DNA of 64,000 nucleotides from Candidatus Bathyarchaeota archaeon. GTDB lineage: Archaea; Thermoproteota; Bathyarchaeia; TCS64. This document shows, piece after piece, positions 3,559 to 60,963 of this stretch. The position numbers and the translations under genes are program-made. The notes under the pieces were generated by a model. That model saw only the letters and a program-made list of their open reading frames with translations, did no database searches and was not told the origin of the DNA. Where the stretch lies: positions 923-64,922 of the forward strand of contig JBDRQD010000039.1 of assembly GCA_043826455.1 (NCBI GenBank). Reading direction: 5' to 3'. Within the stretch, counting starts at the first letter, position 1; every line of letters begins with the position of its first letter.

Positions 3559-4755
3559 ATGGATGCGGATGACAGGGTTTTCATCTTCCAGGTTCTGAGG
3601 TACGCGGCCGCCCTCTCATTCATGTTCATGGGCTACGGCCTCATTCAGCCGCTGCTGTCCCTTTACACGTCCAGCTTCGTGGGGGCCTCATACCTGCTGG
3701 TGGGGGCCCTGGTCTCCATCATCGGGCTGGTCAAGGCGGGCATGGGACCGGTGAGCGGCTTCATGTCGGACAGGTACGGCAGGAAGAGGATGGCCACCCT
3801 GGGGGCCCTCAGCGTTTCCCTGAGCATCCTCATAGTCACCTTGGCCCAGGCCGCGCCCCACCTGGTGGCCGCCTTCGTCTTGTACGGGCTAGGCCAGGCC
3901 TTCTTCTTCCTAGCCATCATGACAGGCATGGTGGAAGCCGCGGGCCCCGCCAGAAGGGCCCTGGTCCTCGGCCTCTACGAGGGGGTCAACAGCTTCTCCA
4001 TCCTGGCCGGGACCTGGCTCTCGGGGCCTCTGACGGCCAGCCTCGGCGTCCGTCCCGTGTTCGGGGTCGCGGCGGCTTTCAGCCTCGTCTCCTTCGCGGC
4101 GTGCGTGTTTCTGGTTAGGGAGACCGCGATGGTGGGCCAGGGCGCAAGGCTCCTGGAGCTGAGTGGCCTCAGGAGCATCCTGAGCCGGGAGTACGTGACG
4201 GCCATGTACAGCTCCTTCCTATTCATGTACACCCACAGCCTATACATGACGGTGATACCCCTCTACACAACCCTCACGGTCCGGATACCTGACGGGTTCC
4301 TGCCCGTCCTGTTCATGGGGCTCTCCGGGGCCACGGCGCTAGGCTCTCTCATAGCGGGCCCCGTGTCCGACCGCGTGGGTAGAAGAGTCCCCATAGCGGT
4401 GGGGATGGTCGTCGCCGCATCAAGCTTCGTGGCTCTCTTCCTCTCCGCGTCCCAGACGGTGCTGGTGGCCGCGAGCCTGGCCCTGGGGCTCGGCGCCGGG
4501 TTCTTCCACCCTGTGGCCAGCGCCGTGGTCGCGGACATATCAACCGTGGAGAACAGGGGTAAGGCCTTCGGTTTCTACAGGCTCACCCGGGACCTGGGGA
4601 CCTTCGCGGGGCCGGCGGCGGCAGGGGTGGTTACTAGCCTCCTCGGCGTGGGGGCTCTCTTCACCCTCAGCGCGGGCCTCATGGTCTTGGGCGCGTTCCT
4701 TGCCCTGTTCGTTATCAGGGAGACTCATCCGAAGGATTCAGGGGTCTCGGCTTGA
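3559..4755 (+). CDS. MFS transporter
   Basis: 398 aa, about 12 TM segments, DRYGRKR loop motif. Confidence 0.8.
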   Translation: MDADDRVFIFQVLRYAAALSFMFMGYGLIQPLLSLYTSSFVGASYLLVGALVSIIGLVKAGMGPVSGFMSDRYGRKRMATLGALSVSLSILIVTLAQAAPHLVAAFVLYGLGQAFFFLAIMTGMVEAAGPARRALVLGLYEGVNSFSILAGTWLSGPLTASLGVRPVFGVAAAFSLVSFAACVFLVRETAMVGQGARLLELSGLRSILSREYVTAMYSSFLFMYTHSLYMTVIPLYTTLTVRIPDGFLPVLFMGLSGATALGSLIAGPVSDRVGRRVPIAVGMVVAASSFVALFLSASQTVLVAASLALGLGAGFFHPVASAVVADISTVENRGKAFGFYRLTRDLGTFAGPAAAGVVTSLLGVGALFTLSAGLMVLGAFLALFVIRETHPKDSGVSA

Positions 4756-4788: not shown

Positions 4789-5637
4789 ATGAAGTTCTAC
4801 CTCACGGGACTCGGAAACCTATACGAGAACCTGGACGAGATAAAGAGGTCAGTGATAGAGGCCGATAAGCTAGGCTTCGACGGCGCCCTCATGCCCGACC
4901 ACTACATGTGGGGCTCAGAGATCGGTCACACCATGAAGGACCCCTACAGCACCATGGAGACGTGGACGACCCTGACGTACCTGGCCGGCAAGACGGACCG
5001 GATCAGCCTCGGCACCCTTGTGACTCCGCTGCCCTTCAGGCACCCGGGGGTGCTGGCCAAGAGGCTCGCCACCCTGGACATCCTGTCAGGCGGTAGGGTC
5101 GTCCTGGGGGTGGGCGCAGGGTGGAGCAGGGTGGAGTTCGATGGCTACAGTAGGTGGCTGGAGACGGGGCCCAGGGTGGATGCAACGGTGGAGGCCTTGG
5201 AGGTCATGCGGCGTCTCTGGACCGAGCCCGAGGTGTCCTTCAAAGGCGAGTACTATGAGGTGAAGGGCGCCGTGCTGGACCCCAAGCCGCTTCAGAAGCC
5301 TTACCCCAGGCTGCTCTTCGGGAGCCAGGGCAGACGGATGCTACAGCTGACGGGCAGGTACGGGGACATATGCTTCATCCCGCCTTGGGCCGCAGCCAAG
5401 CAGACGGAGATCAAGGACACGGTGCTGGAGGCTGCGGAGGAGGACGGCAGGATAAACAAAGTGGCCTTCATGGGCGGCCTCATGGGGGCAGCGGGGCCGT
5501 ACAGCTCAGGAGAGTACGCTCGGCTGGCGGAGGCCCAGGAGAAGGCCGGGTCCACCTACTGTGCGGTGGCGTTCCCCTGGGGATCAGCTGATGCCATGAG
5601 GAGGTTCGCCGAGGAAGTCATGCCCAGCTACAGGTAG
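4789..5637 (+). CDS. Luciferase-like (LLM class) flavin/F420-dependent oxidoreductase
   Basis: Family-typical N-terminus (FDGALMPDHY...), GRVVLGVGAGW motif. Confidence 0.8.
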   Translation: MKFYLTGLGNLYENLDEIKRSVIEADKLGFDGALMPDHYMWGSEIGHTMKDPYSTMETWTTLTYLAGKTDRISLGTLVTPLPFRHPGVLAKRLATLDILSGGRVVLGVGAGWSRVEFDGYSRWLETGPRVDATVEALEVMRRLWTEPEVSFKGEYYEVKGAVLDPKPLQKPYPRLLFGSQGRRMLQLTGRYGDICFIPPWAAAKQTEIKDTVLEAAEEDGRINKVAFMGGLMGAAGPYSSGEYARLAEAQEKAGSTYCAVAFPWGSADAMRRFAEEVMPSYR

Positions 5638-5642
5638 CGGAG

Positions 5643-6386
5643 TCACGTCTCCCAGTCTCTCTCATCCATCTTCTCTATGAAATCCACCAGCAGGCCGACC
5701 AGCGCGTCGTTCATGAGCCTCCCCTTCTCAGGGGTAGCCTTACTGGGGTCACCCGTGGCTCCGTAGGGGGTGAGTTCGTCGAAGGTCCACTTCACCTCCA
5801 CGTGGCTGGGCAGGTCGGGGACAACCCCCCTGGCTCGGGTCATGTCCACGAGGCCGGGGTCCACCCTGAGCATCATGCTGGTCTCGCCCTCGCCGCCGTG
5901 GCCCAGGCCACCCCAAACCTCAAAGGTGCCCTTGGGGACCAGCTGGCCCGCGGCCACCCACCAGGCCTCCAGGACGGCCACCTTGAACTCGGGGTGGGCT
6001 GTCCTGTACTCGCGGGTGGCGGCGTCTATGGCCGGGATGTTGCCGTCGTGGCCGTTGACTATGAGGAGCCTGTTGAGGCCGTGCTTCCGGAGGCTGTCGA
6101 ACACGTCCCTCAGTACGTGCATAAGCGTCTCCGTGCTCAGGCTTATGGCCAGGGGGAAGCTGCTGTAGTGGGCGCTCATGCCGAGGGGGATGGTGGGCAG
6201 CATGAGGAGACCCTCGGTCCTCTTGACCACCTCCCTTGCGAGGTGCTCAGCCACCAGGGTGTCAGTACCGTAGGGCAGGTGGTCACCGTGGTACTCGGTG
6301 GAGCCCACGGCGAGCACCGCCTTGTTGTATCCGCCAGCCTTGTACTCGTGGCCCAGGAGCCGCAGCAGAGGTTTACCTTCCTTCAT
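5643..6386 (-). CDS. Creatininase-family amidohydrolase
   Basis: GSTEYHGDHLPYGTDT and NGHDGN motifs of the creatininase / ArfB-like family. Confidence 0.8.
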   Translation of the reverse strand: MKEGKPLLRLLGHEYKAGGYNKAVLAVGSTEYHGDHLPYGTDTLVAEHLAREVVKRTEGLLMLPTIPLGMSAHYSSFPLAISLSTETLMHVLRDVFDSLRKHGLNRLLIVNGHDGNIPAIDAATREYRTAHPEFKVAVLEAWWVAAGQLVPKGTFEVWGGLGHGGEGETSMMLRVDPGLVDMTRARGVVPDLPSHVEVKWTFDELTPYGATGDPSKATPEKGRLMNDALVGLLVDFIEKMDERDWET

Positions 6387-6448: not shown

Positions 6449-7288
6449 TTGTATGCTGGGACGCGGAGAATTGCTGTGATCGACTTGTCTGGACCCGTTG
6501 AAGGCTATATGGAAGTAGGCAAGTACAGGTTCCACCACCTCCGCTGGGGCGAGAAGGGAAACAGCGTGGTGCTGCTCCACAGCATGGGGGTGGACGCCTA
6601 CAGCATGGACCTGCTGGCCGGGTCCTTGGCGGCCACCCACAGGGTGCTGGCCCTCACCATCCTGGGCCACGGAGACTCCACGGTCCCCACGGAGCCGGTG
6701 TCGCTGCCGGACCACGCCGAGCTCCTGTTCACCTGCATGCGGAAGCTGGGGTACACCCCCTGCGTCCTGGTGGGCCACAGCGTCGGGGGCAGGCTCAGCA
6801 TGATCCTGTCATCGGAGCACCCCGCGGACGTCAAGGGTGTGGTTCTGGTAGACATAGCTCCGCCGGACCCGACGCCGAGACCCTATACCATGCAGACCCC
6901 AGCGTCCTTCAAGGACCGGGCGGAGGCCGAGGCCTACCTGAGGCAGAGGTACACCCGGTTCAAGGAGCACTACTTGATGAACAGGCTCAGGCACGGGTTC
7001 GTGGAGAGGCAGGACGGGTCCCTGGTGCCTAAGCCCACGGGTAACGAGTTCATGAGGGACATGTCCACGGACCTGTGGCCCTACGTGGAGAGGATGAGGG
7101 CGCCGACGCTGCTGGTGCTGGGATCGGAGAGCACCCTTGTGACCCCGGAAAAGCACGCCAGGATGAAGAAGAGTATACCCGTTTTCGAGTCCCTGACGGT
7201 GGAGGGGGCCACCCACATGGTGCCCCAGGACAAGCCCGACGAGTTCGAGGCCGCCGTCCGGGGCTTCCTGAACAGGAACAGATGGTAG
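6449..7288 (+). CDS. Alpha/beta-fold hydrolase
   Basis: HSMG...GHSVGG nucleophile elbow, C-terminal GATHMVPQDKP. Confidence 0.8.
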   Translation: MYAGTRRIAVIDLSGPVEGYMEVGKYRFHHLRWGEKGNSVVLLHSMGVDAYSMDLLAGSLAATHRVLALTILGHGDSTVPTEPVSLPDHAELLFTCMRKLGYTPCVLVGHSVGGRLSMILSSEHPADVKGVVLVDIAPPDPTPRPYTMQTPASFKDRAEAEAYLRQRYTRFKEHYLMNRLRHGFVERQDGSLVPKPTGNEFMRDMSTDLWPYVERMRAPTLLVLGSESTLVTPEKHARMKKSIPVFESLTVEGATHMVPQDKPDEFEAAVRGFLNRNRW

Positions 7289-7297
7289 CCCGGCGCC

Positions 7298-8194
7298 CTA
7301 GCTGCCGGCACCGGTCAGGCTCTTCACTTCCTCCAGCGCCTTCACGGCCACCTCTATCATGTCCGGGTCGGGCTCCTTGGTTGTGAGGCGCTGGAACAGG
7401 AGGCCGGGGGCCATCAACGCCTTCACTACAGCTGAGTTCCTGTGCTTATCGCTCAGCTTCAGCAGCTCGTAGCTAACCGACGCTATCACGGGTATCAGCA
7501 TGAGCCTGTAGGCTAGGCGCATCCAGTAGGTGCTCTGGGGGATCAAGGCGAAGAGGGCTATACTGGTGACCACCGTCAGGAAGAGGAAGCTGGTTCCGCA
7601 CCTGGGATTAAGCCTCGGGTACCCGGCCACGGTCTCGGTGTCCAGTGGGGCCCCGGCCTCGTGGGCGTTGATGGCCTTGTGCTCGGCCCCGTGGTACTGG
7701 AGGACCCTGGCCACCTCCCCCCACCTGGAGATGAGGAAGAGGTACAGGATGAACATGGTGAGCCTTAGGGCGGACTCGACGACGTTGAACAGGATGCCTG
7801 TGATGCCCAGGAGGCCTGTGAGGACGTATGGTATGGCTATGAAGGCTCCGTTGAGGGCCACCAGCATCACCACCAGTATCAGGTAGTCGGTGACTGTGAA
7901 GGAATCGTCCTCCTCCTCCAGGGCCAGGTTGGCGCTGTGCATCATGCTCTTGACGCCGAAGTACATGGTCTCGAAGAGGGTGACGATCCCCCGGATGAAG
8001 GGTAGGCCCAGTATGGGGTGCCTGGTCCTGGACTTGACTGTCAGGGTGCTGGTGTTGATGCTGCTGTCGGGCTGCCTGACGCACATCACCATGTGTGACC
8101 CGCTGCGCATCATCACTCCCTCTATGAGTGCCTGGCCGCCGAAGGCCAGGGACTCTTCGCCTGGCTTCATGCCGATACTCAACGCGGAACGCAA
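7298..8194 (-). CDS. DUF1385 membrane protein
   Basis: YHGAEHKAINAHE motif and TM segments. Confidence 0.75.
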   Translation of the reverse strand: MRSALSIGMKPGEESLAFGGQALIEGVMMRSGSHMVMCVRQPDSSINTSTLTVKSRTRHPILGLPFIRGIVTLFETMYFGVKSMMHSANLALEEEDDSFTVTDYLILVVMLVALNGAFIAIPYVLTGLLGITGILFNVVESALRLTMFILYLFLISRWGEVARVLQYHGAEHKAINAHEAGAPLDTETVAGYPRLNPRCGTSFLFLTVVTSIALFALIPQSTYWMRLAYRLMLIPVIASVSYELLKLSDKHRNSAVVKALMAPGLLFQRLTTKEPDPDMIEVAVKALEEVKSLTGAGS

Positions 8195-8218
8195 TAAAAA
8201 CCAATGGATCAGGACAGG

Positions 8219-8920
8219 CTACTCTAAGACGCGGGCCAGCTCCGACAGGTCTTTGATGGTGCGTTCTGGTTTGAGCGGGTGGCTGGGCCTTTCCCTTTCA
8301 TCCCTGTTCACCCAAACGGCTCTGAGGCCGGCGCCCAGAGCTCCCACTATGTCCTTCATGTAGTTGTCTCCGATGTACGTGACCTGGCGAGCCTTGGCCT
8401 TAACCCGGATGAGCAGCTCCTCAAATATCTCTCTACTGGGCTTGGAGTAGCCCACTTCACCCGATATTACCACGTGTTCGAAGCAGCCATCCAGACCAAG
8501 GGCGCGTATCTTCTGCCGCTGGAGGTCGCTGGGGCCGTTGCTCAGGAGGCTGATCCTGTATTTTTCTCTTAGACTCTCCAAGGCTTGGGGCGCCTCAGGG
8601 TAGTAGGCGAAGAGGCGGCTCATGGTCGACCAGTGGGCCGCGCTCAGCTCCGCGGCCAGGCCACGATCCTCTACACCGAGCACCTTGAGGGTGTCCGTTA
8701 TCTGCATGAGCCTTATCTCCTTCTCTCCGAGGCCTCTACTAATCACCAGGTCCACATACCTCTCCTCGTAGGCCTGATACTGCGTGTCGAAGGCCTGGGC
8801 CGCCCTGGAGGGCTCGAAGCCCCAAGAAATTATGCGATTGACGACCTCTCGGCAGGCGGCCTCCTCAGCTGTGGCCGAGTTGCAGAGGGTGCCATCCAGA
8901 TCAAAGCAGAGGATCAGCAA
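8219..8920 (-). CDS. HAD-superfamily hydrolase
   Basis: N-terminal FDLDGTL motif, SNGP, and GDN..KD near the C-terminus. Confidence 0.8.
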   Translation of the reverse strand: MLILCFDLDGTLCNSATAEEAACREVVNRIISWGFEPSRAAQAFDTQYQAYEERYVDLVISRGLGEKEIRLMQITDTLKVLGVEDRGLAAELSAAHWSTMSRLFAYYPEAPQALESLREKYRISLLSNGPSDLQRQKIRALGLDGCFEHVVISGEVGYSKPSREIFEELLIRVKAKARQVTYIGDNYMKDIVGALGAGLRAVWVNRDERERPSHPLKPERTIKDLSELARVLE

Positions 8921-9022
8921 GGTTACCCCAGATTATGTGTCTGCCCTGTTATCGGTTTCGGTGGCAGAGACACTGATAATCCCCGTTTAAGGGTATGAAA
9001 ATGGTGTAGGGTGGGTCCGCCG

Positions 9023-9229
9023 CTAGACGCCTTCGACCATCTTGTCTATGAGCTCTATGGCCTGGGTGATGTTCTCTCGGGCCATCACCAGGAGGGACCG
9101 TATTATCTTGGTCTTGTTCTTCATGGTCTCTATGTCTCGTTTGCAGACCTGTAGCAGGTTGTCCATGTCCTTGAGGTCCTCTATGAGGATCATCTCCTCG
9201 GGTTTCTTCTCATTGTTGCCTACAGCCAT
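9023..9229 (-). CDS. Small hypothetical coiled-coil protein (68 aa)
   Basis: ORF only. Charged helical sequence with no recognisable family. Confidence 0.4.
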   Translation of the reverse strand: MAVGNNEKKPEEMILIEDLKDMDNLLQVCKRDIETMKNKTKIIRSLLVMARENITQAIELIDKMVEGV

Positions 9230-9353
9230 TCTGGGTCACGGTATGTATATTGGTGATGTGAGGATAAGATTATGGATTATACACAGTTCATTGCTTCCAT
9301 TTATCTCTGTTCGCCAAACCGATTGGTGCGAGCGGTAAGCATTTTGAGCTTTA

Positions 9354-9388
9354 GGATAATGAGAGGATAATGAGAGGCTAATGATGAG
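9354..9388. repeat. 11-bp tandem repeat x3 (GGATAATGAGA GGATAATGAGA GGCTAATGATGAG)
   Basis: Read directly, in the intergenic region between two minus-strand genes. Confidence 0.8.
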
Positions 9389-9397
9389 CTATGGCTC

Positions 9398-9877
9398 CTA
9401 GAGTCGCTGCCCCAGCTCCTCCGCCCACCGCCTCACCTTCTCCGGGTCCGTGGTGTCGACGGCGGTCTTGCCCAGGACCCTTATCCTGCCGCCGAAGCCC
9501 TCCACCGCCACCAGGTTCAGGTCGTCGTGCTTCTCCTTGATGGGGTTCATGTACTTCCTCACCGCGTCAGGGTAGCTTTCCTCGGTCCCCGCCTCGTTGG
9601 AGGATAGGAAGACGGCCACCGGCTTGCCCCCGAAGTCGTTCCTCAGATACTCTAGGCCTCTGCGGTAGACACGTTGCGCCCGGACCCCGGACCCCACCAC
9701 GAAGAAATCATACATCTGGGGGTCAGGCTTCTTTCCCTGCCTGATGTCCACTAGTTCCACATTGTGGCCGTACTTCTCCCGCAGGGTCTCCGCTACGATC
9801 TCTGCGTACTCCTTGGTGACTCCGCCGGAAGTCATGTAGGCTATGAGGGTTCTCTTCTCTCCGTCCAATTCAAGCAC
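9398..9877 (-). CDS. Flavodoxin-domain protein
   Basis: 159 aa, flavodoxin-like alpha/beta pattern (LIAYMTSGGVTKEYAE..., FFVVGSGV). Confidence 0.65.
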   Translation of the reverse strand: MLELDGEKRTLIAYMTSGGVTKEYAEIVAETLREKYGHNVELVDIRQGKKPDPQMYDFFVVGSGVRAQRVYRRGLEYLRNDFGGKPVAVFLSSNEAGTEESYPDAVRKYMNPIKEKHDDLNLVAVEGFGGRIRVLGKTAVDTTDPEKVRRWAEELGQRL

Positions 9878-10998: not shown

Positions 10999-11040
10999 CG
11001 GCTCGGGGCTGTATTTCACCTCACATTTTTTTATCGTATC

Positions 11041-11092
11041 GAGGGGAAGATTTGAACTACCGACCTTTGGGTCATGAGCCTCACGGGCTACC
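11041..11092 (-). pseudogene. Decayed partial copy of tRNA-iMet (anticodon arm to 3' acceptor only)
   Basis: The reverse complement GGTAGCCCGTGAGGCTCATGACCCAAAGGTCGGTAGTTCAAATCTTCCCCTC aligns to the 3' two-thirds of the intact tRNA at 11920-11997. The stems now have mismatches and the 5' part is absent. Confidence 0.6.
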
Positions 11093-11203: not shown

Positions 11204-11677
11204 ATGAAGGCTCTAGTGATATACGACACCTTCTTCGGCAACACAGAGCAGGTGGCCCGCGCCATCAGCGACTCCCTGGGGGCGGAGAGCACCGCGATCC
11301 GCGTGGCCGACGCGAACCACGGGCAACTTGACGGCCTGGGCCTCCTGGTGGTGGGCTCACCCACGAGGGCGTTCAGGCCCACGAAGCCCATCAGCCAGTT
11401 CCTGGACAGGATCCCCCGGGACACCCTCAAGGGCATCAGCGTAGCCGCCTTCGACACCAGGATGTCCGAGGCCGAGCTAAACTCACCCTTGCTGGGCATA
11501 ATAGTAAAGCTATTCGGCTACGCGTCCAAGCCCATATCAGACAAACTTGTGAGGAAGGGAGGGGAGCAGGCAGCTCCCCCCGAAGGCTTCATCGTCGAAG
11601 GAACAGAAGGCCCGCTGAGGGACGGCGAACTCGAACGGGCCTGGGCCTGGGCCAAGCAGATCACCGAGACTCGGTGA
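11204..11677 (+). CDS. Flavodoxin
   Basis: MKALVIYDTFFGNTEQVA N-terminus and VVGSPT motif. Confidence 0.8.
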   Translation: MKALVIYDTFFGNTEQVARAISDSLGAESTAIRVADANHGQLDGLGLLVVGSPTRAFRPTKPISQFLDRIPRDTLKGISVAAFDTRMSEAELNSPLLGIIVKLFGYASKPISDKLVRKGGEQAAPPEGFIVEGTEGPLRDGELERAWAWAKQITETR

Positions 11678-11919
11678 CAGATCATAAACCTCTCACCCCC
11701 ATCCCCACCCCCTGCCTAACAGCCGCCTCAACAGCGCAGCCCCGAAAAACCACCCCCCATGATAACAAGACAAACAACGAGTACGGCGGACACCGCCGAC
11801 CACCACCACCGCCAACGAACCCCGAAAAAGCCCCCGATCAACAAAACAAGCCAGAACAATGTGAATCGTGGTGGCGGCGGTGGGACCCCCCCTCCCCCCC
11901 ACATGCACGCACAAACAAT
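11678..11919 (+). repeat. A+C-rich intergenic element, copy A
   Basis: Aligns by eye at roughly 80% over ~135 nt to the reverse complement of 60731-60875, and more loosely to 50190-50330. Confidence 0.7.
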
Positions 11920-11997
11920 TGGTAGCGGGGGGTAGATTTGAACTACCGACCTTGGGGTTATGAGCCCCACGGGCTAACCTGGCTGCCCTACCCCGCT
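11920..11997 (-). tRNA. Initiator tRNA-Met (CAT), CCA encoded
   Basis: Reverse complement AGCGGGGTAGGGCAGCCAGGTTAGCCCGTGGGGCTCATAACCCCAAGGTCGGTAGTTCAAATCTACCCCCCGCTACCA. It has A1:U72 and three G:C pairs closing the anticodon stem. Confidence 0.9.
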
Positions 11998-12059
11998 TCC
12001 TCTCAGATCACAACCCTATAGTCTTATAAACCTTCCAGTACCCCCCACAAACTGAAAAC

Positions 12060-12371
12060 ATGCCCCGCCCCAACACCAGACGCATCGCAGAACAACGCAT
12101 AGAGACCCTCTACCACAAGGCAAAGGAAACATACACCGTCAACCCGAACCTCAGCCGCAGATACACCCAGCTCCTCAGACGCATAGCCCAGCGCACCCGC
12201 ACCAAGCTACCCACACACATCAGACGAGGCATATGCAGAGGCTGCGGCACCGTCCTCATCCAGGGCCTCAACAGCCACACCAGGCTCAGGCAGCGCCGGG
12301 AACCCCACATAGCCACCACCTGCCACCTCTGCGGCCACACCCACAGAATACCCATGAGAGACCCACCGTGA
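12060..12371 (+). CDS. rnp4: RNase P protein component 4 (Rpp21/RNP4)
   Basis: Basic N-terminus plus zinc ribbon CRGCGTVLIQGLNSHTRLR...TCHLCGH. Confidence 0.8.
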   Translation: MPRPNTRRIAEQRIETLYHKAKETYTVNPNLSRRYTQLLRRIAQRTRTKLPTHIRRGICRGCGTVLIQGLNSHTRLRQRREPHIATTCHLCGHTHRIPMRDPP

Positions 12372-13396
12372 CCCTCACCCTCATCAGCGTCGGCCTCAGC
12401 AGCCACCTAGACCTCTCCCTCCGCGCCCTAGAAGCCGCCAAAGACGCCCACCACGTCTACGCCGAGACATACACCATGAAACTGGACACAACGATACAGG
12501 CACTCCAGGAAACCCTAGGCAGACCCGTCACACCCCTGGCCCGGGGAGGCCTGGAGGAAGAGGCACCCAGACTCCTGGAGGCCGCCGAGAACTCCAACGT
12601 CGCCATCCTGGTGGGCGGAGACGCCCTCGCCGCCACCACCCACATGAGCCTGCTAGTGGACGCAGCCAAGCGAAGCATCCCCGTCAGGGTGATCCACGGA
12701 AGCAGCGTCTTCACCGCCATAGCAGAGACAGGCCTAAGCCTATACAAGTTCGGCCGAACCGTCACGGTGCCCCTGCCCGAGAAGGGCCCCGTGGACACCG
12801 TCCTCAGGACCCTCAAGGAGAACGTGGAGCACGGCCTCCACACCCTCCTGCTCCTGGATCTGGACATCCCCGCGGACAGGTACCTCACCGTACCCGAGGC
12901 CATCACACGGCTGGAGGCGACCGGGGAGTTCCCCATGGACACCCTCATGGTGGCCGCAGCCAGGCTGGGCTCCAACACCCAACTCGTCCGGGCCGACACG
13001 GCCATGAAACTCAGAGACACCGACTGTGGGGACCCACCATACGCTCTGGTCGTTCCCGGTCAACTCCATTTCTTAGAGGAGGAGGCCTTGCAGGTGGTAG
13101 CGGGCTGCCCCCCCCGCCTACTGGAGGGCAGAAGGGTGCAGGGGGAGGTGGACCGTCTCGTGGAGAAGTACGCCACGGGGTGCCGGAGGGTGCTGGAAGC
13201 CCTTAAGGTGGCTGAGCTGCCAGCCGAGGTGACGGAAGAAGCGGTCGCCGGCCTCCTAGACCACGTGAGGCGCTACCTGGAGGACGCAGAGTACTACCGC
13301 GCGGACCAGAAGCCTGTGGCTCTCACCAGCGTCGCCTACGCCGAGGGCATCTTGGACGCCTTAAAGCTTTTAGGCATAGCCGACTTCCAGTGGTGA
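12368..13396 (+). CDS. dphB: Diphthine synthase with ~75-85 aa C-terminal extension
   Basis: Tetrapyrrole-methylase fold (LTLISVGL..., VAILVGGDALAATTH, YKFGRTVT). The GTG start overlaps the rnp4 TGA (GTGA). Confidence 0.85.
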   Translation: MTLTLISVGLSSHLDLSLRALEAAKDAHHVYAETYTMKLDTTIQALQETLGRPVTPLARGGLEEEAPRLLEAAENSNVAILVGGDALAATTHMSLLVDAAKRSIPVRVIHGSSVFTAIAETGLSLYKFGRTVTVPLPEKGPVDTVLRTLKENVEHGLHTLLLLDLDIPADRYLTVPEAITRLEATGEFPMDTLMVAAARLGSNTQLVRADTAMKLRDTDCGDPPYALVVPGQLHFLEEEALQVVAGCPPRLLEGRRVQGEVDRLVEKYATGCRRVLEALKVAELPAEVTEEAVAGLLDHVRRYLEDAEYYRADQKPVALTSVAYAEGILDALKLLGIADFQW

Positions 13397-16569: not shown

Positions 16570-18210
16570 ATGAGCCCCCTTAAGGCATGTGAAGCAGACC
16601 TTGTGCTTGTTAACGGCAAGATAATCACTGTGGATGCGGGTTTCTCCGTGGCCCAAGCCGTGGCCGTCAAGGACGGCAGGGTCCAGACGGTGGGCACCAC
16701 CGAGGACATCAAGAAGCTGGTGGGCAAAGGCACTGAGGTCATCGAACTGAAGGGCAGGACGGTGATGCCCGGACTCTACGACAGCCACCTCCACGTGGTG
16801 GGCACAGGCACGGCCCTCCAGATGATCAACTGCCGCACGCCCCCCATGATGAGCATCGAGGACATGAAGAAGACCGTGGCCGAGAAGGCGAAGCAGGCCA
16901 AGCCCGGCGAGTGGATACAGGGCCGCGGCTGGGACCAAGCCAAGCTGAAGGAGCACAGGAACCCCAGCCGCTGGGACCTAGACCAGGTGTCCCCGGACAA
17001 CCCCGTCGTCCTCACACGGACCTGCGGCCACCTGCTGGTGGCTAACAGTCTGGCTCTGGAGATAGCTGGAGTAACCAAGGACACCCCTGACCCTGTGGGC
17101 GGCAAGATTGTGCGGAACGAGATGGGTGAGCCCACTGGGATGCTGGAGGAGGGCCCAGCCATGACCTTCGTCAGGAAGCATATCCCGCCCGTCGGCATCC
17201 CGGAGACCATGGAGGCCATCAGGACTGCGTGCACCGCCTTCAACGAGGTGGGTATCACCAGCGTCATAGACGCCGGCAACACCGAGGACGAGATGGTGGC
17301 CTACCAGTTGCTGAAGGAGCGGGGCGAGCTCACCTGCAGAGTCAACATGATGCTGCGATCTATCCAGGACGGCGAGCCCATAGAGGAGAGCGTAAAGCGG
17401 GTTGAGAACTTCCCCATGGTCACGGGCTTCGGGGACGCGCTCCTAAGGTTCCAGGGACTGAAGATCCTCATAGACGGAGGCATAGGGGGCAGGACGGCCC
17501 TCATACGGGAGCCCTATGAGAACGATCCCGACAACTGCGGGTTGCTGACGGTGCCCGTGGAGGACCTTCAGAGGCTGGTGGACGCCGCCAACAGGCGAGG
17601 TATGCTAACGGGCATCCACTGCGCCGGCGGCAAGGCCACGGACATAGTGCTTGAGGCTTATCGGAAGACGGATAAGGTGAAGCCCATCAAGGGGCGCCGC
17701 TTCTACCTCATCCACGCGTACCAGCCAAGCGACGAGAACTTTAAGGACTGCCAGGAGTTGGGGGTTCTGGTTGCCAGCCAGCCCAGCTTCCTCTATTACC
17801 TGGGGGAGAGCTACTACGAGAACGTGGGCAATGAGCGGAGCGAGTGGCTGAAGCCCCACAGGGCCTGGATAGACCACGGCATCATGGTGGGCGGAGGCAC
17901 CGACAGCCCCGTGACGCCGTACCCGCCGTTCCCCAGCCTCTGGGCAGCCATCGCCCGTCGCACCGAGATAAATGATGTCCAGATGGGCACTGAGCAGTGC
18001 GTCACACGGGAGGAGGCCATAAGGATGTACACCGTCAACGGCGCCTTCCTCAGCTTCGAGGAAGACATCAAGGGCAGCCTGGAGCCGGGTAAGTTGGCGG
18101 ACATGGTCATACTGGACAGAGACATCCTGACGTGCCCGGTGGACGGCATCAAGGATACCAGGGTGCTGAGGACGTTCCTGGGCGGCAAGACTGTGTACAG
18201 GGCCAAGTAG
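16570..18210 (+). CDS. Amidohydrolase-3 (YtcJ-like) metal-dependent hydrolase
   Basis: PGLYDSHLHV metal-binding motif, 546 aa, family-typical C-terminus. Confidence 0.8.
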   Translation: MSPLKACEADLVLVNGKIITVDAGFSVAQAVAVKDGRVQTVGTTEDIKKLVGKGTEVIELKGRTVMPGLYDSHLHVVGTGTALQMINCRTPPMMSIEDMKKTVAEKAKQAKPGEWIQGRGWDQAKLKEHRNPSRWDLDQVSPDNPVVLTRTCGHLLVANSLALEIAGVTKDTPDPVGGKIVRNEMGEPTGMLEEGPAMTFVRKHIPPVGIPETMEAIRTACTAFNEVGITSVIDAGNTEDEMVAYQLLKERGELTCRVNMMLRSIQDGEPIEESVKRVENFPMVTGFGDALLRFQGLKILIDGGIGGRTALIREPYENDPDNCGLLTVPVEDLQRLVDAANRRGMLTGIHCAGGKATDIVLEAYRKTDKVKPIKGRRFYLIHAYQPSDENFKDCQELGVLVASQPSFLYYLGESYYENVGNERSEWLKPHRAWIDHGIMVGGGTDSPVTPYPPFPSLWAAIARRTEINDVQMGTEQCVTREEAIRMYTVNGAFLSFEEDIKGSLEPGKLADMVILDRDILTCPVDGIKDTRVLRTFLGGKTVYRAK

Positions 18211-18478: not shown

Positions 18479-18506
18479 CTAAATTTTGGATGACTACTCA
18501 AGGTGT

Positions 18507-20996
18507 ATGCGGAGCCGAGAATATATTCTGCTCGTCACCATACTGCTTGCATTCACGGTGACGCCCCCCAACGTTTCGGGGGCGTCCGAATCCGCCCACA
18601 TCCTCAAGATCACGGTGTCCACGGACTCCGACTGGAGCACCGTGAAGCTTGGGCTCAGCAGCTTGCTCCTCTGGGACCTGACGGTGGACCGAGGACTAGA
18701 GGAGAGTGTCGCTGCCTGGGCCGATGAAGCTCTGCACCTGTCCATATCTAAAGCGCCCTACGATTCATCAGTGGTCCAGGTCACTTTGGAGGCCCTCGTA
18801 CTGAGCGGAGGAGAGGCCGTGGAGGTTGCCGTGGAGAAGGGGTTCATCGGCGAGACCCGGATAAGGGTCTACGGCTGGGCCATGGGTAGGTACCTGCAGC
18901 TGAAGAGGATCAACCATGGAAGCGTGCCGGGCGACCCGGCTCTGAATAGGGGTGTCTACACCGTGTCCGCTGAGGCGCTGCGGTACTCCCGGCTAGGCGT
19001 GGAGAGGCTGGGAGAGGAGCCGCCCAAGATGGTTCACGCCGTCTACTACCCTTGGTACGGTAGCCCTTCGGGGCCCTCGTCCTCGTGGAGCCACTGGAGC
19101 GACGTAACCTCGGACAACTCGGGGAACTCTGCTCATTTTCCAGTTCTGGGCGCCTACGACAGCTTGGACCTAGCCCTAATAGAAGCCCACATTGCTGTGG
19201 CCAAGGACGCCGGATTAGACGGTTTTCTGTGCTCGTGGTGGGGCCCCGGGTCCCGCGAGGACCAGGCTCTCGGGCTGATGCTTGAAACGGCTGAGGGGCT
19301 GGGCTTCAAGGTGGGGGTCTACTACGAGTCCATCCGGGACGGCGTCGGCCCTCTATCAGCGGAGATCATGGTCGAGGAGCTGTGCTACATAGTTGGCAGG
19401 TACTCGGGGGAGACTGGATATCTCAAGGTGGGTGACGCTCCCGTGGTGTTTGTTTTTGGGGCCCAGGCCGGGGACAGGGACGTGTCTCTGTGGAGGCGTG
19501 TGAAGGACGAGGTTGAGGCTAGGGTGGGTGAGGTCCTGCTCGTGGGGGATATGAGGGACCCGGGGCTTCTAGGTGCCTTGGACGGTATGCACGTGTACAA
19601 CGAGTTGGATGCATCGGAGCACGGAGCCGTCACCGAGGTCATAGCTGGTAACAGGTGGGTGCTTGAGGAGTCTGACATTGAAGCGGTCAAGGCCCGCGTC
19701 AAGTCGGATGGGGTTCTAACGCTCAGCAGAAAGCTCGCCGTGGGCACCGTGCTTCCCGGGTACGACGACACAGAAACCAGAAGCCCGGGTGCGGTTCTGC
19801 CCAGAGACGGCTCAGAGACCTACGAAGGCTACTGGGGCCGCGTCGCTGGCTCGGATGTGGACTGGGTCGTGGTCACCAGCTGGAACGAGTGGCACGAGGG
19901 GACGGAGGTGGAGCCCAGCGTCGAGGAGGGGTTCCTAGCCTTACAGACGACCCGCGCCAACGCTCTACTGTTCAAGAGTCAAGTATATGAAGAGGCACAA
20001 CAGCCGGAAATCCGTGTAGAGGCTGAGTCGTGCAGCGAAAACGTGCTGGTGAGGCTGAGCAACCTTGGATCGGGGATAGCCTACGCGTTAACCTGTGAGA
20101 TGTCACGAGCGGGTGACCTGGTTGAAGCAACGACCATACCCCGTATAGGTTCTGGTGAGATCACGGAGTACAGCCTGACGCTTCCAGAGGCGGAGGCGTC
20201 TTACAGTGTCCTGGTAACCTACTACGGCTTCACAGGGGGGCGGCATGAGGAAACCATAAGCTTCACGTCTCCCCCAGGTGAGGCTAAAGAGCCCCTAGCG
20301 CCCCCATTGTATCCGCCGCAGCCCGATGGGGAAGGAGTGTGGCTGAGCCTCCGAGGATTAGAGGTCGAGGCAGGGTACGGGACGCTCCACGTGGAGGCCA
20401 GCGTAGACGTCCTGAGCGACCCGGCCGACGTGGAGTACTGCAGCCTGGACGTCGTGGTGGACGGTGAGGTCGTTCACGGTGAGTGCTGGAGCAGCCTGCC
20501 CGAGGTGACGTGGGGCCACCCGGCACTCACTGCTCCCCAGACAATGGCTTACGCGATGGACGTCCCCCTTGAGCCGGGCGTTCACACGGTCTATCTCCGG
20601 AGCTACGCCAGGAACGCGTGGTTCAGCACCGTTTTCACGGGTGACCCCATCACTGTCACAGTCCCGGGCCAATACGTGGACGTCCAGGTCACCCGCTTCA
20701 CGGCGAGGGAGGTGAGCGGCTACCTCCTGGTGGAGCTGGAGGCTCACGTGGAGTCGGATCCTCCGCTGATGGAGTACTGCAGCCTCACGTTGCTGTATGG
20801 GGGTAGTATCATTGGGGGTGTCTGCTGGACGGATATCCCTGGCCTTGGTGGCTACAGGGCAGTGGCGGCCCCTGTGAACCTGCATTACACGTGCACGGTC
20901 CCCGTGGGTCTGAAGGATTTACTCTACGCGGTGGCCTACGCCAGGAACGTGGCCGGGTCCTTTGCCCAGGCGCGGCTGAACGAGTTCACGCGTTAG
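18507..20996 (+). CDS. Secreted GH99-like glycoside hydrolase with C-terminal tandem repeat domains
   Basis: Signal-like N-terminus. YYPWYG...WSHW and TSWNEWHEGTEVEP motifs resemble GH99 endo-alpha-mannosidase-like enzymes. There are two C-terminal ~120-aa repeats sharing an EYCSL motif. Confidence 0.6.
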   Translation: MRSREYILLVTILLAFTVTPPNVSGASESAHILKITVSTDSDWSTVKLGLSSLLLWDLTVDRGLEESVAAWADEALHLSISKAPYDSSVVQVTLEALVLSGGEAVEVAVEKGFIGETRIRVYGWAMGRYLQLKRINHGSVPGDPALNRGVYTVSAEALRYSRLGVERLGEEPPKMVHAVYYPWYGSPSGPSSSWSHWSDVTSDNSGNSAHFPVLGAYDSLDLALIEAHIAVAKDAGLDGFLCSWWGPGSREDQALGLMLETAEGLGFKVGVYYESIRDGVGPLSAEIMVEELCYIVGRYSGETGYLKVGDAPVVFVFGAQAGDRDVSLWRRVKDEVEARVGEVLLVGDMRDPGLLGALDGMHVYNELDASEHGAVTEVIAGNRWVLEESDIEAVKARVKSDGVLTLSRKLAVGTVLPGYDDTETRSPGAVLPRDGSETYEGYWGRVAGSDVDWVVVTSWNEWHEGTEVEPSVEEGFLALQTTRANALLFKSQVYEEAQQPEIRVEAESCSENVLVRLSNLGSGIAYALTCEMSRAGDLVEATTIPRIGSGEITEYSLTLPEAEASYSVLVTYYGFTGGRHEETISFTSPPGEAKEPLAPPLYPPQPDGEGVWLSLRGLEVEAGYGTLHVEASVDVLSDPADVEYCSLDVVVDGEVVHGECWSSLPEVTWGHPALTAPQTMAYAMDVPLEPGVHTVYLRSYARNAWFSTVFTGDPITVTVPGQYVDVQVTRFTAREVSGYLLVELEAHVESDPPLMEYCSLTLLYGGSIIGGVCWTDIPGLGGYRAVAAPVNLHYTCTVPVGLKDLLYAVAYARNVAGSFAQARLNEFTR

Positions 20997-49441: not shown

Positions 49442-50005
49442 ATGGTCGCTCAGCCTAATCTTGAGACTGAAAGACTGATCCTGAGACCATTCAAGCCAAG
49501 CGACGCAGAACAAGTACAGAGACTAGCCGGATCAGAAGAGGTAGCCGAGACCACGAACCTACCCCACCCCTACACCGTGGAGATGGCAGAGGAATGGATC
49601 AAGACCCACGAACCGGCGTACAGGATGGGCTGAGGAGCCGCCTATGCCATCACGCTGAAGAACACCGGCGAACTCATCGGAGCGATCAGCCTCATGGACA
49701 TCACCCAGCCCAGCAACCACGCCCGCATCGGGTTCTGGGTGGGCGTACCCTACTGGAACAAGGGGTACTGCACGGAGGCCGGGAAAGCCGTCCTGGAGTA
49801 CGGCTTCCAAGTGAGACACCTCAACCGCATCCACACAGGCTACATGATCAGCAACCACGCCTCAGGCCGCGTACTGGAGAAGCTCGGCATGGTGTACGAG
49901 GGAACCCAGAGACAGCACATCACCCGACTAGGAAAACACGAAGACCTGATCCTCGTGGGACTACTGAGATCAGAGTGGATCAAAAACCAGGACAAGGCAC
50001 CGTGA
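49442..50005 (+). pseudogene. GNAT (RimJ/RimL-like) N-acetyltransferase interrupted by an in-frame TGA at 49631-49633
   Basis: Track ORFs 49442..49633 and 49694..50005 are in the same frame. The read-through sequence is ...HEPAYRMG*GAAYAITLKNTGELIGAISL... Confidence 0.7.
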
Positions 50006-50332
50006 CGCGGGCCCCCCACATTCTGCCGAGAACCGGCAACACCCACTGACCCATCAAAAAAGGCTCAATGCATCCACTGCCCACCCCTCCGCCACCATAC
50101 ACCAACCCCGAACAAACATTAACCAAATCCACGAACAACCAAACAAGAAAAAACCCAAAACAAAACAGAAAAACAAACCCACACCCCAACCCACGACAGA
50201 CACCACCACAAACCGCCACCATAAAACAACCCCAAAAAACACCCGAACACCAAAACAAACCAAAAAACAGCAAACCATGACAACGACGACAATCCCCCCG
50301 GGGGGGTATGCACACACACAACAAAACAAAGG
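50006..50332 (+). repeat. A+C-rich intergenic element, copy C (most extreme)
   Basis: 50101-50280 contain only 10 G and 5 T in 180 nt by hand count. The 3' end aligns to copy A (…ATGCACRCACAACAA followed by a tRNA 3' end). Confidence 0.6.
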
Positions 50333-50415
50333 TGCGGGGGGAGGGATTCGAACCCTCGAAAGCCTAAGCTATAGGATCTTGAGTCCCACCCCTTTGGCCA
50401 CTTGGGAACCCCCGC
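50333..50415 (-). tRNA. tRNA-Leu (CAA) with long variable arm
   Basis: Reverse complement GCGGGGGTTCCCAAGTGGCCAAAGGGGTGGGACTCAAGATCCTATAGCTTAGGCTTTCGAGGGTTCGAATCCCTCCCCCCGCA. Confidence 0.9.
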
Positions 50416-50493
50416 CCAGAACAAAACAAACACCACCAACATAAAACCGTTCCCCACAAACCCAAATACCACAACAACCAAACCCATACCAAG

Positions 50494-51195
50494 ATGAGGA
50501 CCACCATAAGCCTCGGCGGCAGCCTACTCACCGGCGACAAAAACGACCCCACACTCACCCTAACCCCCAAACCCTACCGAGCCTACGCCACAGTCCTAAG
50601 GCAGCTCCACGACCTCGGCCACCAGATCATGGTTGTATGCGGAGGAGGAAAACCCGCACGCCACTACATCCAGGTAGCCAAAAACCTGGGCGCGTCACGA
50701 TCCATCCAGGACATGCTGGGCGTCAAGGCCACCCACATAAACGCCCTCCTCCTCACAGCCGCCCTAGGCGACACAGCCGACCAGACCAGAATATACACCC
50801 GGGCAACGGAGCTAAGATACCGCCAACCCGACAAGATATGGGTGGGCGGAGGCTATAAGCCCAAAAGCAGCACCGACTACCGGGCCATCCTCCTCGCCCG
50901 CGCCCTCGGCTCAGACGCCGTCATCAACGCCACCGACGTCCCAGGCGTCTACGACTCCAACCCCCACACCAACCCCAAAGCCAGAAAGCTCGACACGGCA
51001 ACCCACGCCCAGCTAGAGAGAATCATCAAAGAAAGCACCAGGCAGGCCCCAGGCGAGTACGGCCTCTTCGACCTCAAAGCAGTCAAACTAGCCGCCAGGA
51101 TCAACATGCCCCTCATCTTCATAGACGGCAGAGACCCCGAGGAGCTGAGACGAGCCGTCGAAGGCGGCCACAGCGGCACAGTAGTGAAGACTTAG
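50494..51195 (+). CDS. pyrH: UMP kinase (archaeal type)
   Basis: ISLGGSLL...VVCGGGKPARHY...GGYKPKSSTD pattern, 233 aa. Confidence 0.9.
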   Translation: MRTTISLGGSLLTGDKNDPTLTLTPKPYRAYATVLRQLHDLGHQIMVVCGGGKPARHYIQVAKNLGASRSIQDMLGVKATHINALLLTAALGDTADQTRIYTRATELRYRQPDKIWVGGGYKPKSSTDYRAILLARALGSDAVINATDVPGVYDSNPHTNPKARKLDTATHAQLERIIKESTRQAPGEYGLFDLKAVKLAARINMPLIFIDGRDPEELRRAVEGGHSGTVVKT

Positions 51196-51234
51196 CCCTC
51201 TCATGTTTTAATCCCTGAAAACCAACAATAACCC

Positions 51235-52692: not shown

Positions 52693-52841
52693 CCGAGGCT
52701 ACAGTAAAAGGGGGTGGCGTCCACCACATTCACGGGCTGGCTCATAGAGAACCAGGACACCGGAGTAATACTCCTCCTGTCCCTGAGATTGCTTGTTCCC
52801 ACGTGCCTAATAGCGGTCGCCCTGTGAAGACGGGCTGCTAG

Positions 52842-59632: not shown

Positions 59633-59668
59633 GGCAGTTCAAAGAAAATGGTTGAGGTAGATAAATGG

Positions 59669-60691: not shown

Positions 60692-60963
60692 GGATTGATG
60701 ATGGTGGGTTTTGTGTTTAAAGACATTGGGGTGGTTTGTGTGTGTGCACGTGGGGGGGGGGGAGGGGGGGTCCCATCACCGCCACCGCGGTTCCCGGTTT
60801 TCAGGCTTGTTTACTTGATCGGAGGCTTTTTCAGGGTTTCTAGGCGGTGGTGGTGGTGGGTGATGTCCGCCGCGGGGCGTCAGTTGTTCAACAATGGCTT
60901 GACTGCTGTGTGGAAGCGTGTGATTTGAGGCGGGGCTGTTTTTCTGGAAGCTGTCAAGGCTGA
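60692..60963 (-). repeat. A+C-rich intergenic element, copy B (inverted; G+T-rich as read on the + strand)
   Basis: The reverse complement of 60731-60875 aligns to 11781-11915. Weaker similarity extends across the whole intergenic region. Confidence 0.65.

Follow-up and report, generated by a model that had tools for sequence, protein, structure and literature searches.

Clusters of strand-coordinated mutation of the kataegis type arise in long single-stranded DNA at resected breaks. Related phenomena are known from other systems: In fungi, plants, and invertebrates the coding strand is C-biased near gene starts (PMC3315797), human CpG islands show bidirectional strand asymmetries (PMC2817419), transcription-associated mutagenesis raises directional mutation in the flanks of highly transcribed tRNA genes while purifying selection holds the tRNA itself (PMC6130373), and in mitochondria CSB II (conserved sequence block II) is associated with a hybrid quadruplex and an R-loop (PMC3488243). 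Here, we analyze a strand asymmetry in a 64-kb stretch of contig JBDRQD010000039.1 of Candidatus Bathyarchaeota archaeon (hereafter, the window). Its focal region, Zone 1, extends on the + strand from intergenic DNA carrying a multicopy sequence (hereafter, the element) past a tRNA-Met gene and over rnp4 and most of dphB; two further zones lie near 50 and 61 kb (Table 1). In these zones, G (and T) has been lost from the strand running 5'→3' away from a small-RNA gene, and the loss is strand-bound, decays with distance, varies between lineages, and acts on noncoding, synonymous, and nonsynonymous sites. The finding is genuine and unusual, and a strand-specific mutational origin is supported, whereas the original prediction's proposal that the element is the source is not. 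None of the literature searched describes an archaeal amino/keto skew that is anchored at tRNAs and extends over kilobases.

Vertebrate mitochondria resemble the zones in having one G+T-rich and one A+C-rich strand, in changes that are mainly synonymous with accompanying amino-acid shifts, in a magnitude graded by position, and in a nearby G-run with a single A. The human CSB II sequence, which we take to be G5-6AG7-8, resembles the G7AG7 run of the element. The zones differ in being kilobase-scale, multicopy, and located in a cellular chromosome, whereas the mitochondrial bias is genome-wide; the G-run element is dispensable here but a defining part of the CSB II-type system; and the tail extends upstream from the G-rich transcript, while in mitochondria it is downstream of the priming site that the strand is exposed.

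The asymmetries at eukaryotic gene starts share with the zones a local extent, a start at a promoter, a decay over ~1-2 kb, a C-rich coding strand, and an effect on protein composition. They are, however, averages over most genes genome-wide, whereas here a few loci are affected very strongly and nonzone genes show no metagene gradient; the sign, C over G on the coding strand, is that of fungi and plants, but the skew is at its maximum before the presumed transcription start. Moreover, the GC and AT skews reportedly correlate positively in fungi but are opposite in sign here, and no sign flip is seen across the two-way promoter. Mutagenesis at tRNA genes likewise combines directional mutation of the flanks with a spared tRNA, but concerns the eukaryotic gene and its short flanks; here ~1 kb is affected, on the upstream side only, at some tRNA loci, and in an archaeon. 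Kataegis-type clusters (see also PMC4420506) match in showing C→T with some C→G on one strand over kilobases, and the extent of the zones is compatible with the lengths of resection tracts or gaps, but the zones represent an evolutionary steady state across species, with no context preference and no consistent sign switch past the anchor. Replication-related GC and keto skew has the same chemistry and sign, the more exposed strand being G+T-rich, but the zones span 1-3 kb rather than a replichore, occur in both polarities within 64 kb, and have a far larger amplitude, reaching 0.84-0.90 A+C. The zone departs from each known family on a defining point, be it scale, generality, sign and direction, or context.

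Size and extent of the Zone 1 skew

The window as a whole is balanced in A+C (49.9%, at 59.5% G+C). On the + strand of 11678-13050, A+C reaches 0.651 (65.1%; A 356, C 538, G 313, T 166), which corresponds to z = 5.3 in comparison with equal-length windows outside the zones (n = 50,909; mean 0.489, SD 0.031). The maximum among the latter is 0.588, and the sole region of the window exceeding Zone 1 is the second zone near 50 kb. The strong + strand enrichment originally noted by eye is thus confirmed, and skew of the same magnitude is not common elsewhere in the window. Of the two hand counts behind that observation, the control at 16571-16630 was exact (30/60), while 12061-12120 holds 44 rather than 45 A+C among its 60 positions. 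The GC and AT skews of Zone 1 are -0.26 and +0.36; opposite signs of this kind would be expected from transition-type change on one strand.

The left boundary had been placed at the stop codon of the flavodoxin-like gene and the fade at 13040-13080. A cumulative walk indeed becomes steeper right after the flavodoxin stop and is flat by 13000-13100. In 200-nt steps, A+C on the + strand is 0.68, 0.62 (the step with the tRNA), 0.73, 0.68, 0.66, 0.58, and 0.58, and falls to 0.47 from 13001. The location of the fade is therefore right, but part of the abrupt fall in raw values at 13040-13080 comes from the encoded protein: Here a linker joins the TP_methylase domain of dphB to DUF357, first-position A+C is 0.37, and the same drop is found in every dphB ortholog, weakly skewed ones included.

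Noncoding DNA (A+C 0.71-0.90) and third codon positions carry the strongest bias. In rnp4, third-position A+C amounts to 0.86, and over the thirds of dphB it declines (0.80/0.67/0.52), against a range of 0.45-0.66 in the genes outside the zones (median ~0.55, none below 0.45). As expected from the proposed replacement of NNG codons by NNA and NNC, third-position A rises to 0.16-0.23 in zone genes (elsewhere 0.08) and third-position G falls to 0.16-0.31 (elsewhere ~0.40), with T at this position also lost. The embedded tRNA-Met retains its normal composition, as had been noted, with an A+C content of 0.46, and the zone tRNAs in general are normal. The complementary strand had further been credited with long G-runs of quadruplex potential: The G7AG7 run is present, but Zone 1 holds no other canonical G-quadruplex motif; the whole window contains five, two of which lie inside element copies.

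The skew follows DNA strand and position in relatives

We compared the zones with orthologous loci from independent assemblies, L026, L027, L028, L030/31, L054, and L055 for Zone 1 and L048, L051, L052, L053, L056, and L057 for Zones 2 and 3. The homologs of dphB and pyrH all come from Bathyarchaeia/"Bathyarchaeota", the closest named relative being RBG_13_60_20; a likeness to Methanopyrus in GC content and C-runs was misleading. As the zones recur in independent assemblies, they are not assembly artifacts.

In five of the relatives (L026, L027, L028, L054, and L055), a VTT-domain gene and a GT4 gene on the minus strand sit between rnp4 and dphB. The sense-strand third-position A+C of the VTT gene is 0.28 in L027, 0.32 in L054, 0.33 in L055, 0.39 in L026, and 0.43 in L028; that of the GT4 gene (L054 and L055) is 0.42 and 0.45 in the half near the anchor and 0.50 and 0.51 in the far half. 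Since these sense strands are A+C-poor, the + strand excess runs straight through genes of opposite orientation. The skew of dphB in turn depends on its distance from the anchor, third-position A+C in its first third being 0.80 where it is adjacent (window), 0.72 at ~0.8 kb (L030), and 0.62 and 0.55 at ~2.3 kb (L027 and L028); the exception is L026, the closest relative, with 0.68/0.73. A decay fit pooled over nine loci and 11,238 codons gave an amplitude of 0.27 and a length of 988 ± 180 nt, with baselines of 0.60 for co-oriented and 0.46 for anti-oriented genes and the same decay in both orientations. Gene-level codon adaptation and gene transfer had been judged poor explanations of a gradient within a gene, and the crossing of anti-oriented genes, the noncoding maximum, and the decay with distance all bear out that judgment. 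We also noted that the VTT-GT4 pair is absent between rnp4 and dphB in the window lineage and, independently, in that of L030.

Zone 2 allows the same comparison for pyrH. In five genomes where pyrH is divergent from tRNA-Leu, its third-position A+C is 0.67-0.91; the strongest zone is that of L052 (0.91; thirds 0.95/0.92/0.85) and the weakest pyrH skew is that of L048 (0.67), despite an intact element. In the distant genome L057, pyrH lies inside an operon with no tRNA nearby and its value of 0.60 equals the baseline. The zone hinges on its context rather than on the gene. In L056, pyrH has a value of 0.74 and is now split from tRNA-Leu by a 1.5-kb insert of foreign composition (G+C at third codon positions [GC3] 0.47 vs. 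0.82); as the intervening DNA is a recent foreign insert, this skew is a recent relic and not decisive. A low-GC3 island at 6700-9816 (0.32-0.53 vs. ~0.82 in the neighbors) has entered this tRNA-Leu locus of L056 between the tRNA and pyrH; its genes encode an HNH endonuclease, a protease of the PrsW type, and hypothetical proteins.

When the 50 nonzone genes of the window are divided into 40-codon bins counted from the start codon, third-position A+C shows no 5'→3' gradient and stays at 0.53-0.58, so the zones are no extreme case of an effect common to gene starts. Nor is the skew an expression axis, as the nonzone genes with the highest third-position A+C encode transporters and amidohydrolases; the bias follows position rather than expression-like codon usage. 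The strong zones instead share their layout: Each is anchored at the 5' side of a gene for a tRNA or other small RNA, and this gene and the first protein gene, which starts 27-80 nt away, have a putative compact two-way promoter in common. Zone 1 is anchored at tRNA-Met and Zone 2 at tRNA-Leu, while in Zone 3 the G-run element takes this place. The presumed promoter of Zone 1, at 11998-12059, is conserved in L028 and L030.

Direction of substitution

An excess of G→A on this strand, from deamination of C to U on the complementary strand, had been proposed as the expected trace of the process, to be sought with outgroups. For Zone 1, we polarized the differences between the window and L026 with three outgroups and used the 3' third of dphB and two downstream genes as controls. 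In the 5' two-thirds of dphB, 22 G→A changes were found in comparison with 7 C→T (binomial P = 0.008), while the controls had 17 and 16. For Zone 2, we counted terminal-branch singletons in five genomes. The L052 lineage had 35 G→A and 10 C→T, as well as 9 G→C and 1 C→G, half of its G losses lying within the first 400 nt. The weakly skewed L048 and L053 lineages were reversed in comparison (Fisher P = 6e-7), as if relaxing: L048 had 1 G→A and 14 C→T with 8 A→G and 1 T→C, and L053 had 7 G→A and 14 C→T with 11 A→G and no T→C. In Zone 3, the L052 copy of the element can be compared with the window copy, which equals the family consensus; it differs by 17 G→A and 1 A→G, 7 T→C and 4 C→T, 4 T→A, and 3 G→C. 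The predicted directional excess of G→A on the A+C-rich strand is thus present at all three loci.

The amino-acid changes in the L052 lineage are mainly of G→A type (V>I ×5, E>K ×2, and D>N, R>Q, R>K, G>S, and V>M). We found no neighbor-base preference, the loss of G in L052 being 9-10% for each of the four 3' neighbors (44 events at 479 sites), which departs from the preference that characterizes APOBEC-like deamination. At fourfold sites, the zone genes of the window and L052 have diverged by 0.24-0.27, compared with a local range of 0.10-0.27; as the zone values top this range, the synonymous sites are under no extra constraint.

The intergenic element

The element is ~140 nt long, multicopy, and found only in contigs of Bathyarchaeia, with ~15 nonredundant copies recovered (Table 1). 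On its C-rich strand, a 13-bp stem is followed by the core CCYGAAAAAGCCYCCGATCAAnnAAACAAGCC, then C7TC7, and CACRTGCAC; the G-rich strand has the invariant core CCTGAAAAAGCCTCCGATCAATAAAACAAGCCTGAAAAC, then G6-7AG6-7 and GTGCACGTG. The core scan of a genome collection gave 24 matches, of which 3, in metagenome-assembled genomes of Bathyarchaeia, were real and the rest were chance, bacterial ones; a metagenome scan gave 19 stretches, about two-thirds of them real copies. The element belongs to no Rfam family: Only the tRNAs reached the gathering threshold, and the E-value mode gave only chance-level matches. We considered C/D-box, H/ACA, signal recognition particle, and RNase P RNAs, but on inspection saw none of their defining motifs.

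The consensus folds better on the G-rich than on the C-rich strand (-19.5 vs. -8.3 kcal/mol), and a small RNA transcribed in the sense of the adjacent tRNA would therefore fit. The 13-bp stem is 92% paired and shows compensatory change in five pairs, with many G·U; a C→T bias on the G-rich strand would, however, create G·U pairs too. The element is mobile, since it is present or absent at the same locus between close relatives, and it often abuts the 3' ends of tRNAs. In L048, a direct repeat of ~330 nt, consisting of the element, a spacer, and the last 17 nt of tRNA-Leu, is found at 5190-5520 and 11990-12340; the two repeats, 6.5 kb apart, enclose ORFan genes in the manner of att repeats. Pfam identified no integrase or replication protein in the 6.5-kb insert. 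Its structure suggests that the segment is probably an integrated mobile element with the element in its attachment region. Judged by these features, the element may be an undescribed small RNA or a mobile sequence resembling miniature inverted-repeat transposable elements; we regard it as a mobile sequence linked to att-like repeats and possibly a small-RNA gene. Between element and tRNA 3' end, we observed in several copies a second conserved module, AAAAACAGGGATACCCAaCCACTaGGTAC (L001 ~3830-3880, L018 ~1110-1150, and L048 ~5270-5300 and 12060-12090), which on the tRNA-sense strand has a short hairpin followed by T5-T7, resembling a terminator for the tRNA.

A copy of the element is present in all three zones of the window, a coincidence that had been put up for testing, but orthologs lacking it keep the zone. 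At the Zone 1 locus of L028 and L030, tRNA-Met and the rnp4 spacer are found without the element, and the zone still starts from the tRNA 5' end and decays rightward. At the Zone 2 locus of L053, the element is absent and the tRNA 3' flank is AT-rich and unskewed, and the zone is kept; L052 has no element within the 71 nt available before the contig end. Conversely, intact copies (L018b/L036 and L048b/L033) have no tail past ~200 nt, and the copies in Zone 2 of the window and Zone 3 of L052 have been eroded by G→A while the zones persist. Around 19 listed copies, a few of them duplicated across two contigs, mean A+C is 0.49 upstream and 0.65 in the first 200 nt downstream, returning to the baseline by ~2.5 kb; much of this average comes from the A+C-rich flanks of the element itself and from the host loci. 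The element is thus a victim of the bias, not its source, and is dispensable. That it generates the skew itself, for example through a G-run quadruplex or an RNA:DNA hybrid exposing ~1 kb of DNA, is very improbable even though G7AG7 could form a three-tetrad quadruplex, as the tail also lies upstream rather than downstream of the putative G-rich transcript; as a necessary cause, the element is largely refuted.

Favored mechanism and alternatives

We consider it about an even bet that the zones are the footprint of a local strand-asymmetric mutation pressure, caused most simply by recurrent single-strandedness of the tRNA-sense strand. This strand (the - strand in Zone 1) would lose C, to T and sometimes to G, and probably A too, faster than the + strand, on which the changes would be read as G→A, some G→C, and a depletion of T. 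We infer which strand is damaged, that single-strandedness is the cause, and the following scenarios of a gap and a hybrid. The exposed tract would have a fixed end at the small-RNA gene and a variable end upstream, amounting to a gap in the A+C-rich strand, while inside the small-RNA gene and its trailer the G-rich transcript could displace the strand by forming an RNA:DNA hybrid. The upstream gap could form if, starting from a nick, the A+C-rich strand were removed 5'→3' or resynthesized over a long patch, or by polymerase stalling on the structured G-rich template with re-priming further on, and the damaged bases of the exposed strand would be copied into the new strand. Such a picture would cover at once the constancy of sign to either side of the promoter, the edge that is sharp on one flank, and the tail that decays exponentially on the opposite flank. 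A model of a two-sided break, under which the sign should flip at the anchor, was rejected as a general explanation: The skew changes sign across tRNA-Met in L028 only, toward an integrase gene, and ~0.7 kb off the anchor in L030, but not in the window, in L053, or in Zone 2.

Several observations weigh against exposure of the tRNA-sense strand as the cause. The substitution test in Zone 1 is modest when set against the controls (Fisher P = 0.066), and T→C is hardly measurable, as third-position T is only 0.01-0.05 in the coding DNA and T is nearly absent at polarizable sites. Third-position C has gained 0.15 in the zones, which exceeds the supply by T→C, and codon-level selection or G→C must therefore contribute as well. 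A tRNA gene alone is insufficient, given that the upstream skew of other tRNAs (Arg-GCG, Arg-TCG, Ser-CGA, and Leu-CAG) is weak at 0.55-0.60. The fork-stalling variant needs forks moving in opposite directions at 50 kb and 61 kb. Finally, damage specific to G or T on the A+C-rich strand would leave the same pattern, as would transcription-linked asymmetry of the sign observed where fungal and plant genes start.

The latter, the main rival, is possible, if on balance doubtful. It would have the two-way promoter drive heavy leaderless transcription of rnp4 or pyrH, the sense strand turning C- and A-rich from the start of the protein operon through a bias of mutation or repair coupled to transcription, with the bias fading as transcripts terminate and spilling antisense into convergent genes by read-through. 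Every strong zone does begin at a protein-gene start close to the small-RNA gene, the tails are mostly co-oriented with their genes, and no oligo-T terminators (T≥5 on the zone strand) interrupt them, which leaves read-through transcription a possible driver. The nearly tailless tRNA-Ser, with a tandem rather than divergent neighbor, fits as well, as do pyrH of L057, which has no promoter of its own inside its operon and no zone, and the precedent of C-biased coding strands at 5' ends (PMC3315797). On the other hand, the skew has already reached its maximum (0.71-0.90) in spacer DNA upstream of where the mRNA presumably begins, the starts being inferred from TATA-like boxes; a polar process should flip its sign across a two-way promoter, both sides of which have the same sign; ordinary genes are flat; and antisense read-through of >1.5 kb over VTT and GT4 would be required. 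The sign is also opposite to the experimentally established bias, in which C→T and A→G on the nontemplate strand make the sense strand G+T-rich; here the co-oriented sense strands are A+C-rich, and VTT and GT4 have the same sign by DNA strand.

Selection for transcripts or DNA poor in G and U/T, whether for unstructured 5' mRNA, avoidance of oligo-T terminators, or fewer hybrids and quadruplexes beside an underwound, heavily transcribed promoter, seems to us unlikely. RNA of A and C only cannot base-pair, the zones are kept at the same loci in species with 80-92% protein identity, and the gain of third-position C goes beyond what transitions alone supply. Selection would, however, have pushed anti-oriented genes to highly atypical codon usage (VTT 0.28-0.33), changed amino acids, and eroded a conserved element; synonymous divergence in the zones is not reduced, and the strength of the skew fluctuates strongly between close lineages, some of which are relaxing back. 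The least credible causes are the ordinary ones, namely codon adaptation in highly expressed genes, amino-acid composition, horizontally acquired DNA, and replication skew, to which we give next to no weight. The spread of nonzone third-position A+C is itself considerable (0.45-0.66), amino-acid composition does contribute to the drop at 13040-13080, and tRNA genes do serve as integration sites here. Even so, the third-position, orientation, and ortholog tests refute them. Against codon adaptation speak the within-gene gradients, the intergenic maximum, the anti-oriented genes, and the gene classes, the zone genes encoding ordinary housekeeping and metabolic enzymes rather than classes expected to be highly expressed, with transporters and amidohydrolases topping the nonzone genes. 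The tail genes are syntenic housekeeping genes with divergence consistent with that of their neighbors, unlike an acquired island, and three zones of both polarities within 64 kb exclude chromosome-scale replication skew.

Returning to the mutational reading, it is conceivable, though we rate it a long shot, that transcription of a G-rich small RNA (tRNA or G7AG7 element) repeatedly starts one-strand processing of DNA and forms an archaeal chromosomal counterpart of the mitochondrial system of CSB II and the heavy-strand origin. The RNA:DNA hybrid would then set off nicking with resynthesis of long patches, or even DNA synthesis primed by RNA, and the A+C skew would be a map of such sites across Bathyarchaeia that can be read from genomes alone. 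If the broader mutational reading holds, a few archaeal loci have a kilobase-scale, one-strand mutation hotspot whose pressure drives synonymous sites to 80-90% A+C, alters proteins, and erodes a conserved element, and which has persisted at the same loci across species. It would provide a readout, from sequence alone, of where a strand is chronically exposed or repaired in unculturable organisms and connect local instability of archaeal genomes with small-RNA promoters. The zones distort codon-usage statistics, the detection of gene transfer, phylogenetic models, and metagenome assembly.

Anatomy of the zones and additional observations

Table 1. Zones of the window and their features (positions in the window; L numbers denote other contigs)
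Feature	Position	Strand	Remarks
Partial tRNA-Met copy	11036-11090	-	3' part, ~55 nt; 89% identical to 11922-11976
Flavodoxin-like gene	11204-11677	+	
Zone 1	11678-13050	+	Element-bearing intergenic DNA (11678-11919), tRNA-Met, promoter spacer (putative), and tail over rnp4 and two-thirds of dphB
A+C-rich intergenic stretch	11678-11919		Carries element copy 1
Element copy 1	11784-11919	+	C-rich strand
G7AG7 run	11886-11900	-	Only canonical G-quadruplex motif of Zone 1
tRNA-Met (CAT)	11920-11997	-	5' end is the start of the conserved chromosomal tail
Spacer from tRNA 5' end to rnp4 ATG	11998-12059		62 nt, A+C 0.71; TATA-like TTATAAA at ~12024-12030
rnp4	12060-12371	+	RNase P Rpr2/Rpp21 subunit
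dphB	12368-13396	+	Diphthine synthase + DUF357; 342 aa, PF00590 + PF04010
Zone 2	~49800-52700	+	Layout of Zone 1, stronger skew (A+C up to 0.84)
Element copy, eroded	~50190-50330	+	Zone 2
tRNA-Leu(CAA)	50331-50415	-	Zone 2
Spacer between tRNA-Leu and pyrH			78 nt, A+C 0.90
pyrH	50494-51195		Zone 2; third-position A+C 0.83
MlrC-like gene	51235-52692		Zone 2; third-position A+C by thirds 0.85/0.61/0.65
Zone 3	58700-60963	-	61.0 down to 58.7 kb; mirror orientation, no tRNA
ROK gene	58700-59632		Zone 3; third-position A+C 0.72
FAA-hydrolase gene	59669-60691		Zone 3; third-position A+C 0.72
TATA-like box TTTAAAG/CTTTAAA			Zone 3; shared with FAA-hydrolase gene
Element copy, intact	60736-60876	-	Zone 3; - is the C-rich strand
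G11AG7 run	60752-60770	+	Zone 3; 11 G, A, 7 G
Element copies elsewhere			L001, L017, L018, L033, L040, L043-L046, L048, L049

The partial tRNA-Met copy, not called by ARAGORN or Rfam, lies 830 bp beyond the full tRNA-Met, and the pair brackets the flavodoxin-like gene and the element. The arrangement resembles the att duplication that a now degraded integrated element would leave behind, and the left part of Zone 1, with element and flavodoxin-like gene between tRNA and partial copy, may well be integrated DNA. In L028, a tyrosine-recombinase gene (Phage_integrase; 5384-6187, minus strand) with a sense third-position A+C of 0.68 adjoins the 3' end of tRNA-Met (6277-6354).

The reading frames of rnp4 and dphB overlap by 4 nt (GTGA) in the window, and the fusion of diphthine synthase with a C-terminal DUF357 was seen in all Bathyarchaeia homologs recovered. 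On the left flank of Zone 2, a GNAT gene (Acetyltransf_3; 49442-50005, + strand) is interrupted in frame by a TGA (49631-49633) and could be a pseudogene resulting from the same mutation pressure, no ancestral codon having emerged from the solved homologs. A G+T-rich patch at 19200-19600 (+ strand; A+C 0.34-0.41, GC skew +0.39) lies inside a long reading frame (18486-20996, 836 aa) and is probably caused by protein composition, with no relation to any element or tRNA. A seemingly G+T-rich patch in L027 (4601-4800) proved to be a run of N.

L030 has, at 7200-8400, a second zone of opposite polarity over two minus-strand genes, of the TM1506 family and hypothetical, with third-position A+C of 0.70 and 0.71, respectively; no tRNA, element, or other recognizable anchor was found at its edge near 8400. 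Four contigs (L051, L052, L025, and L027) start inside or beside a tRNA, an element, or an A+C-rich spacer, and such regions seem to break assemblies.

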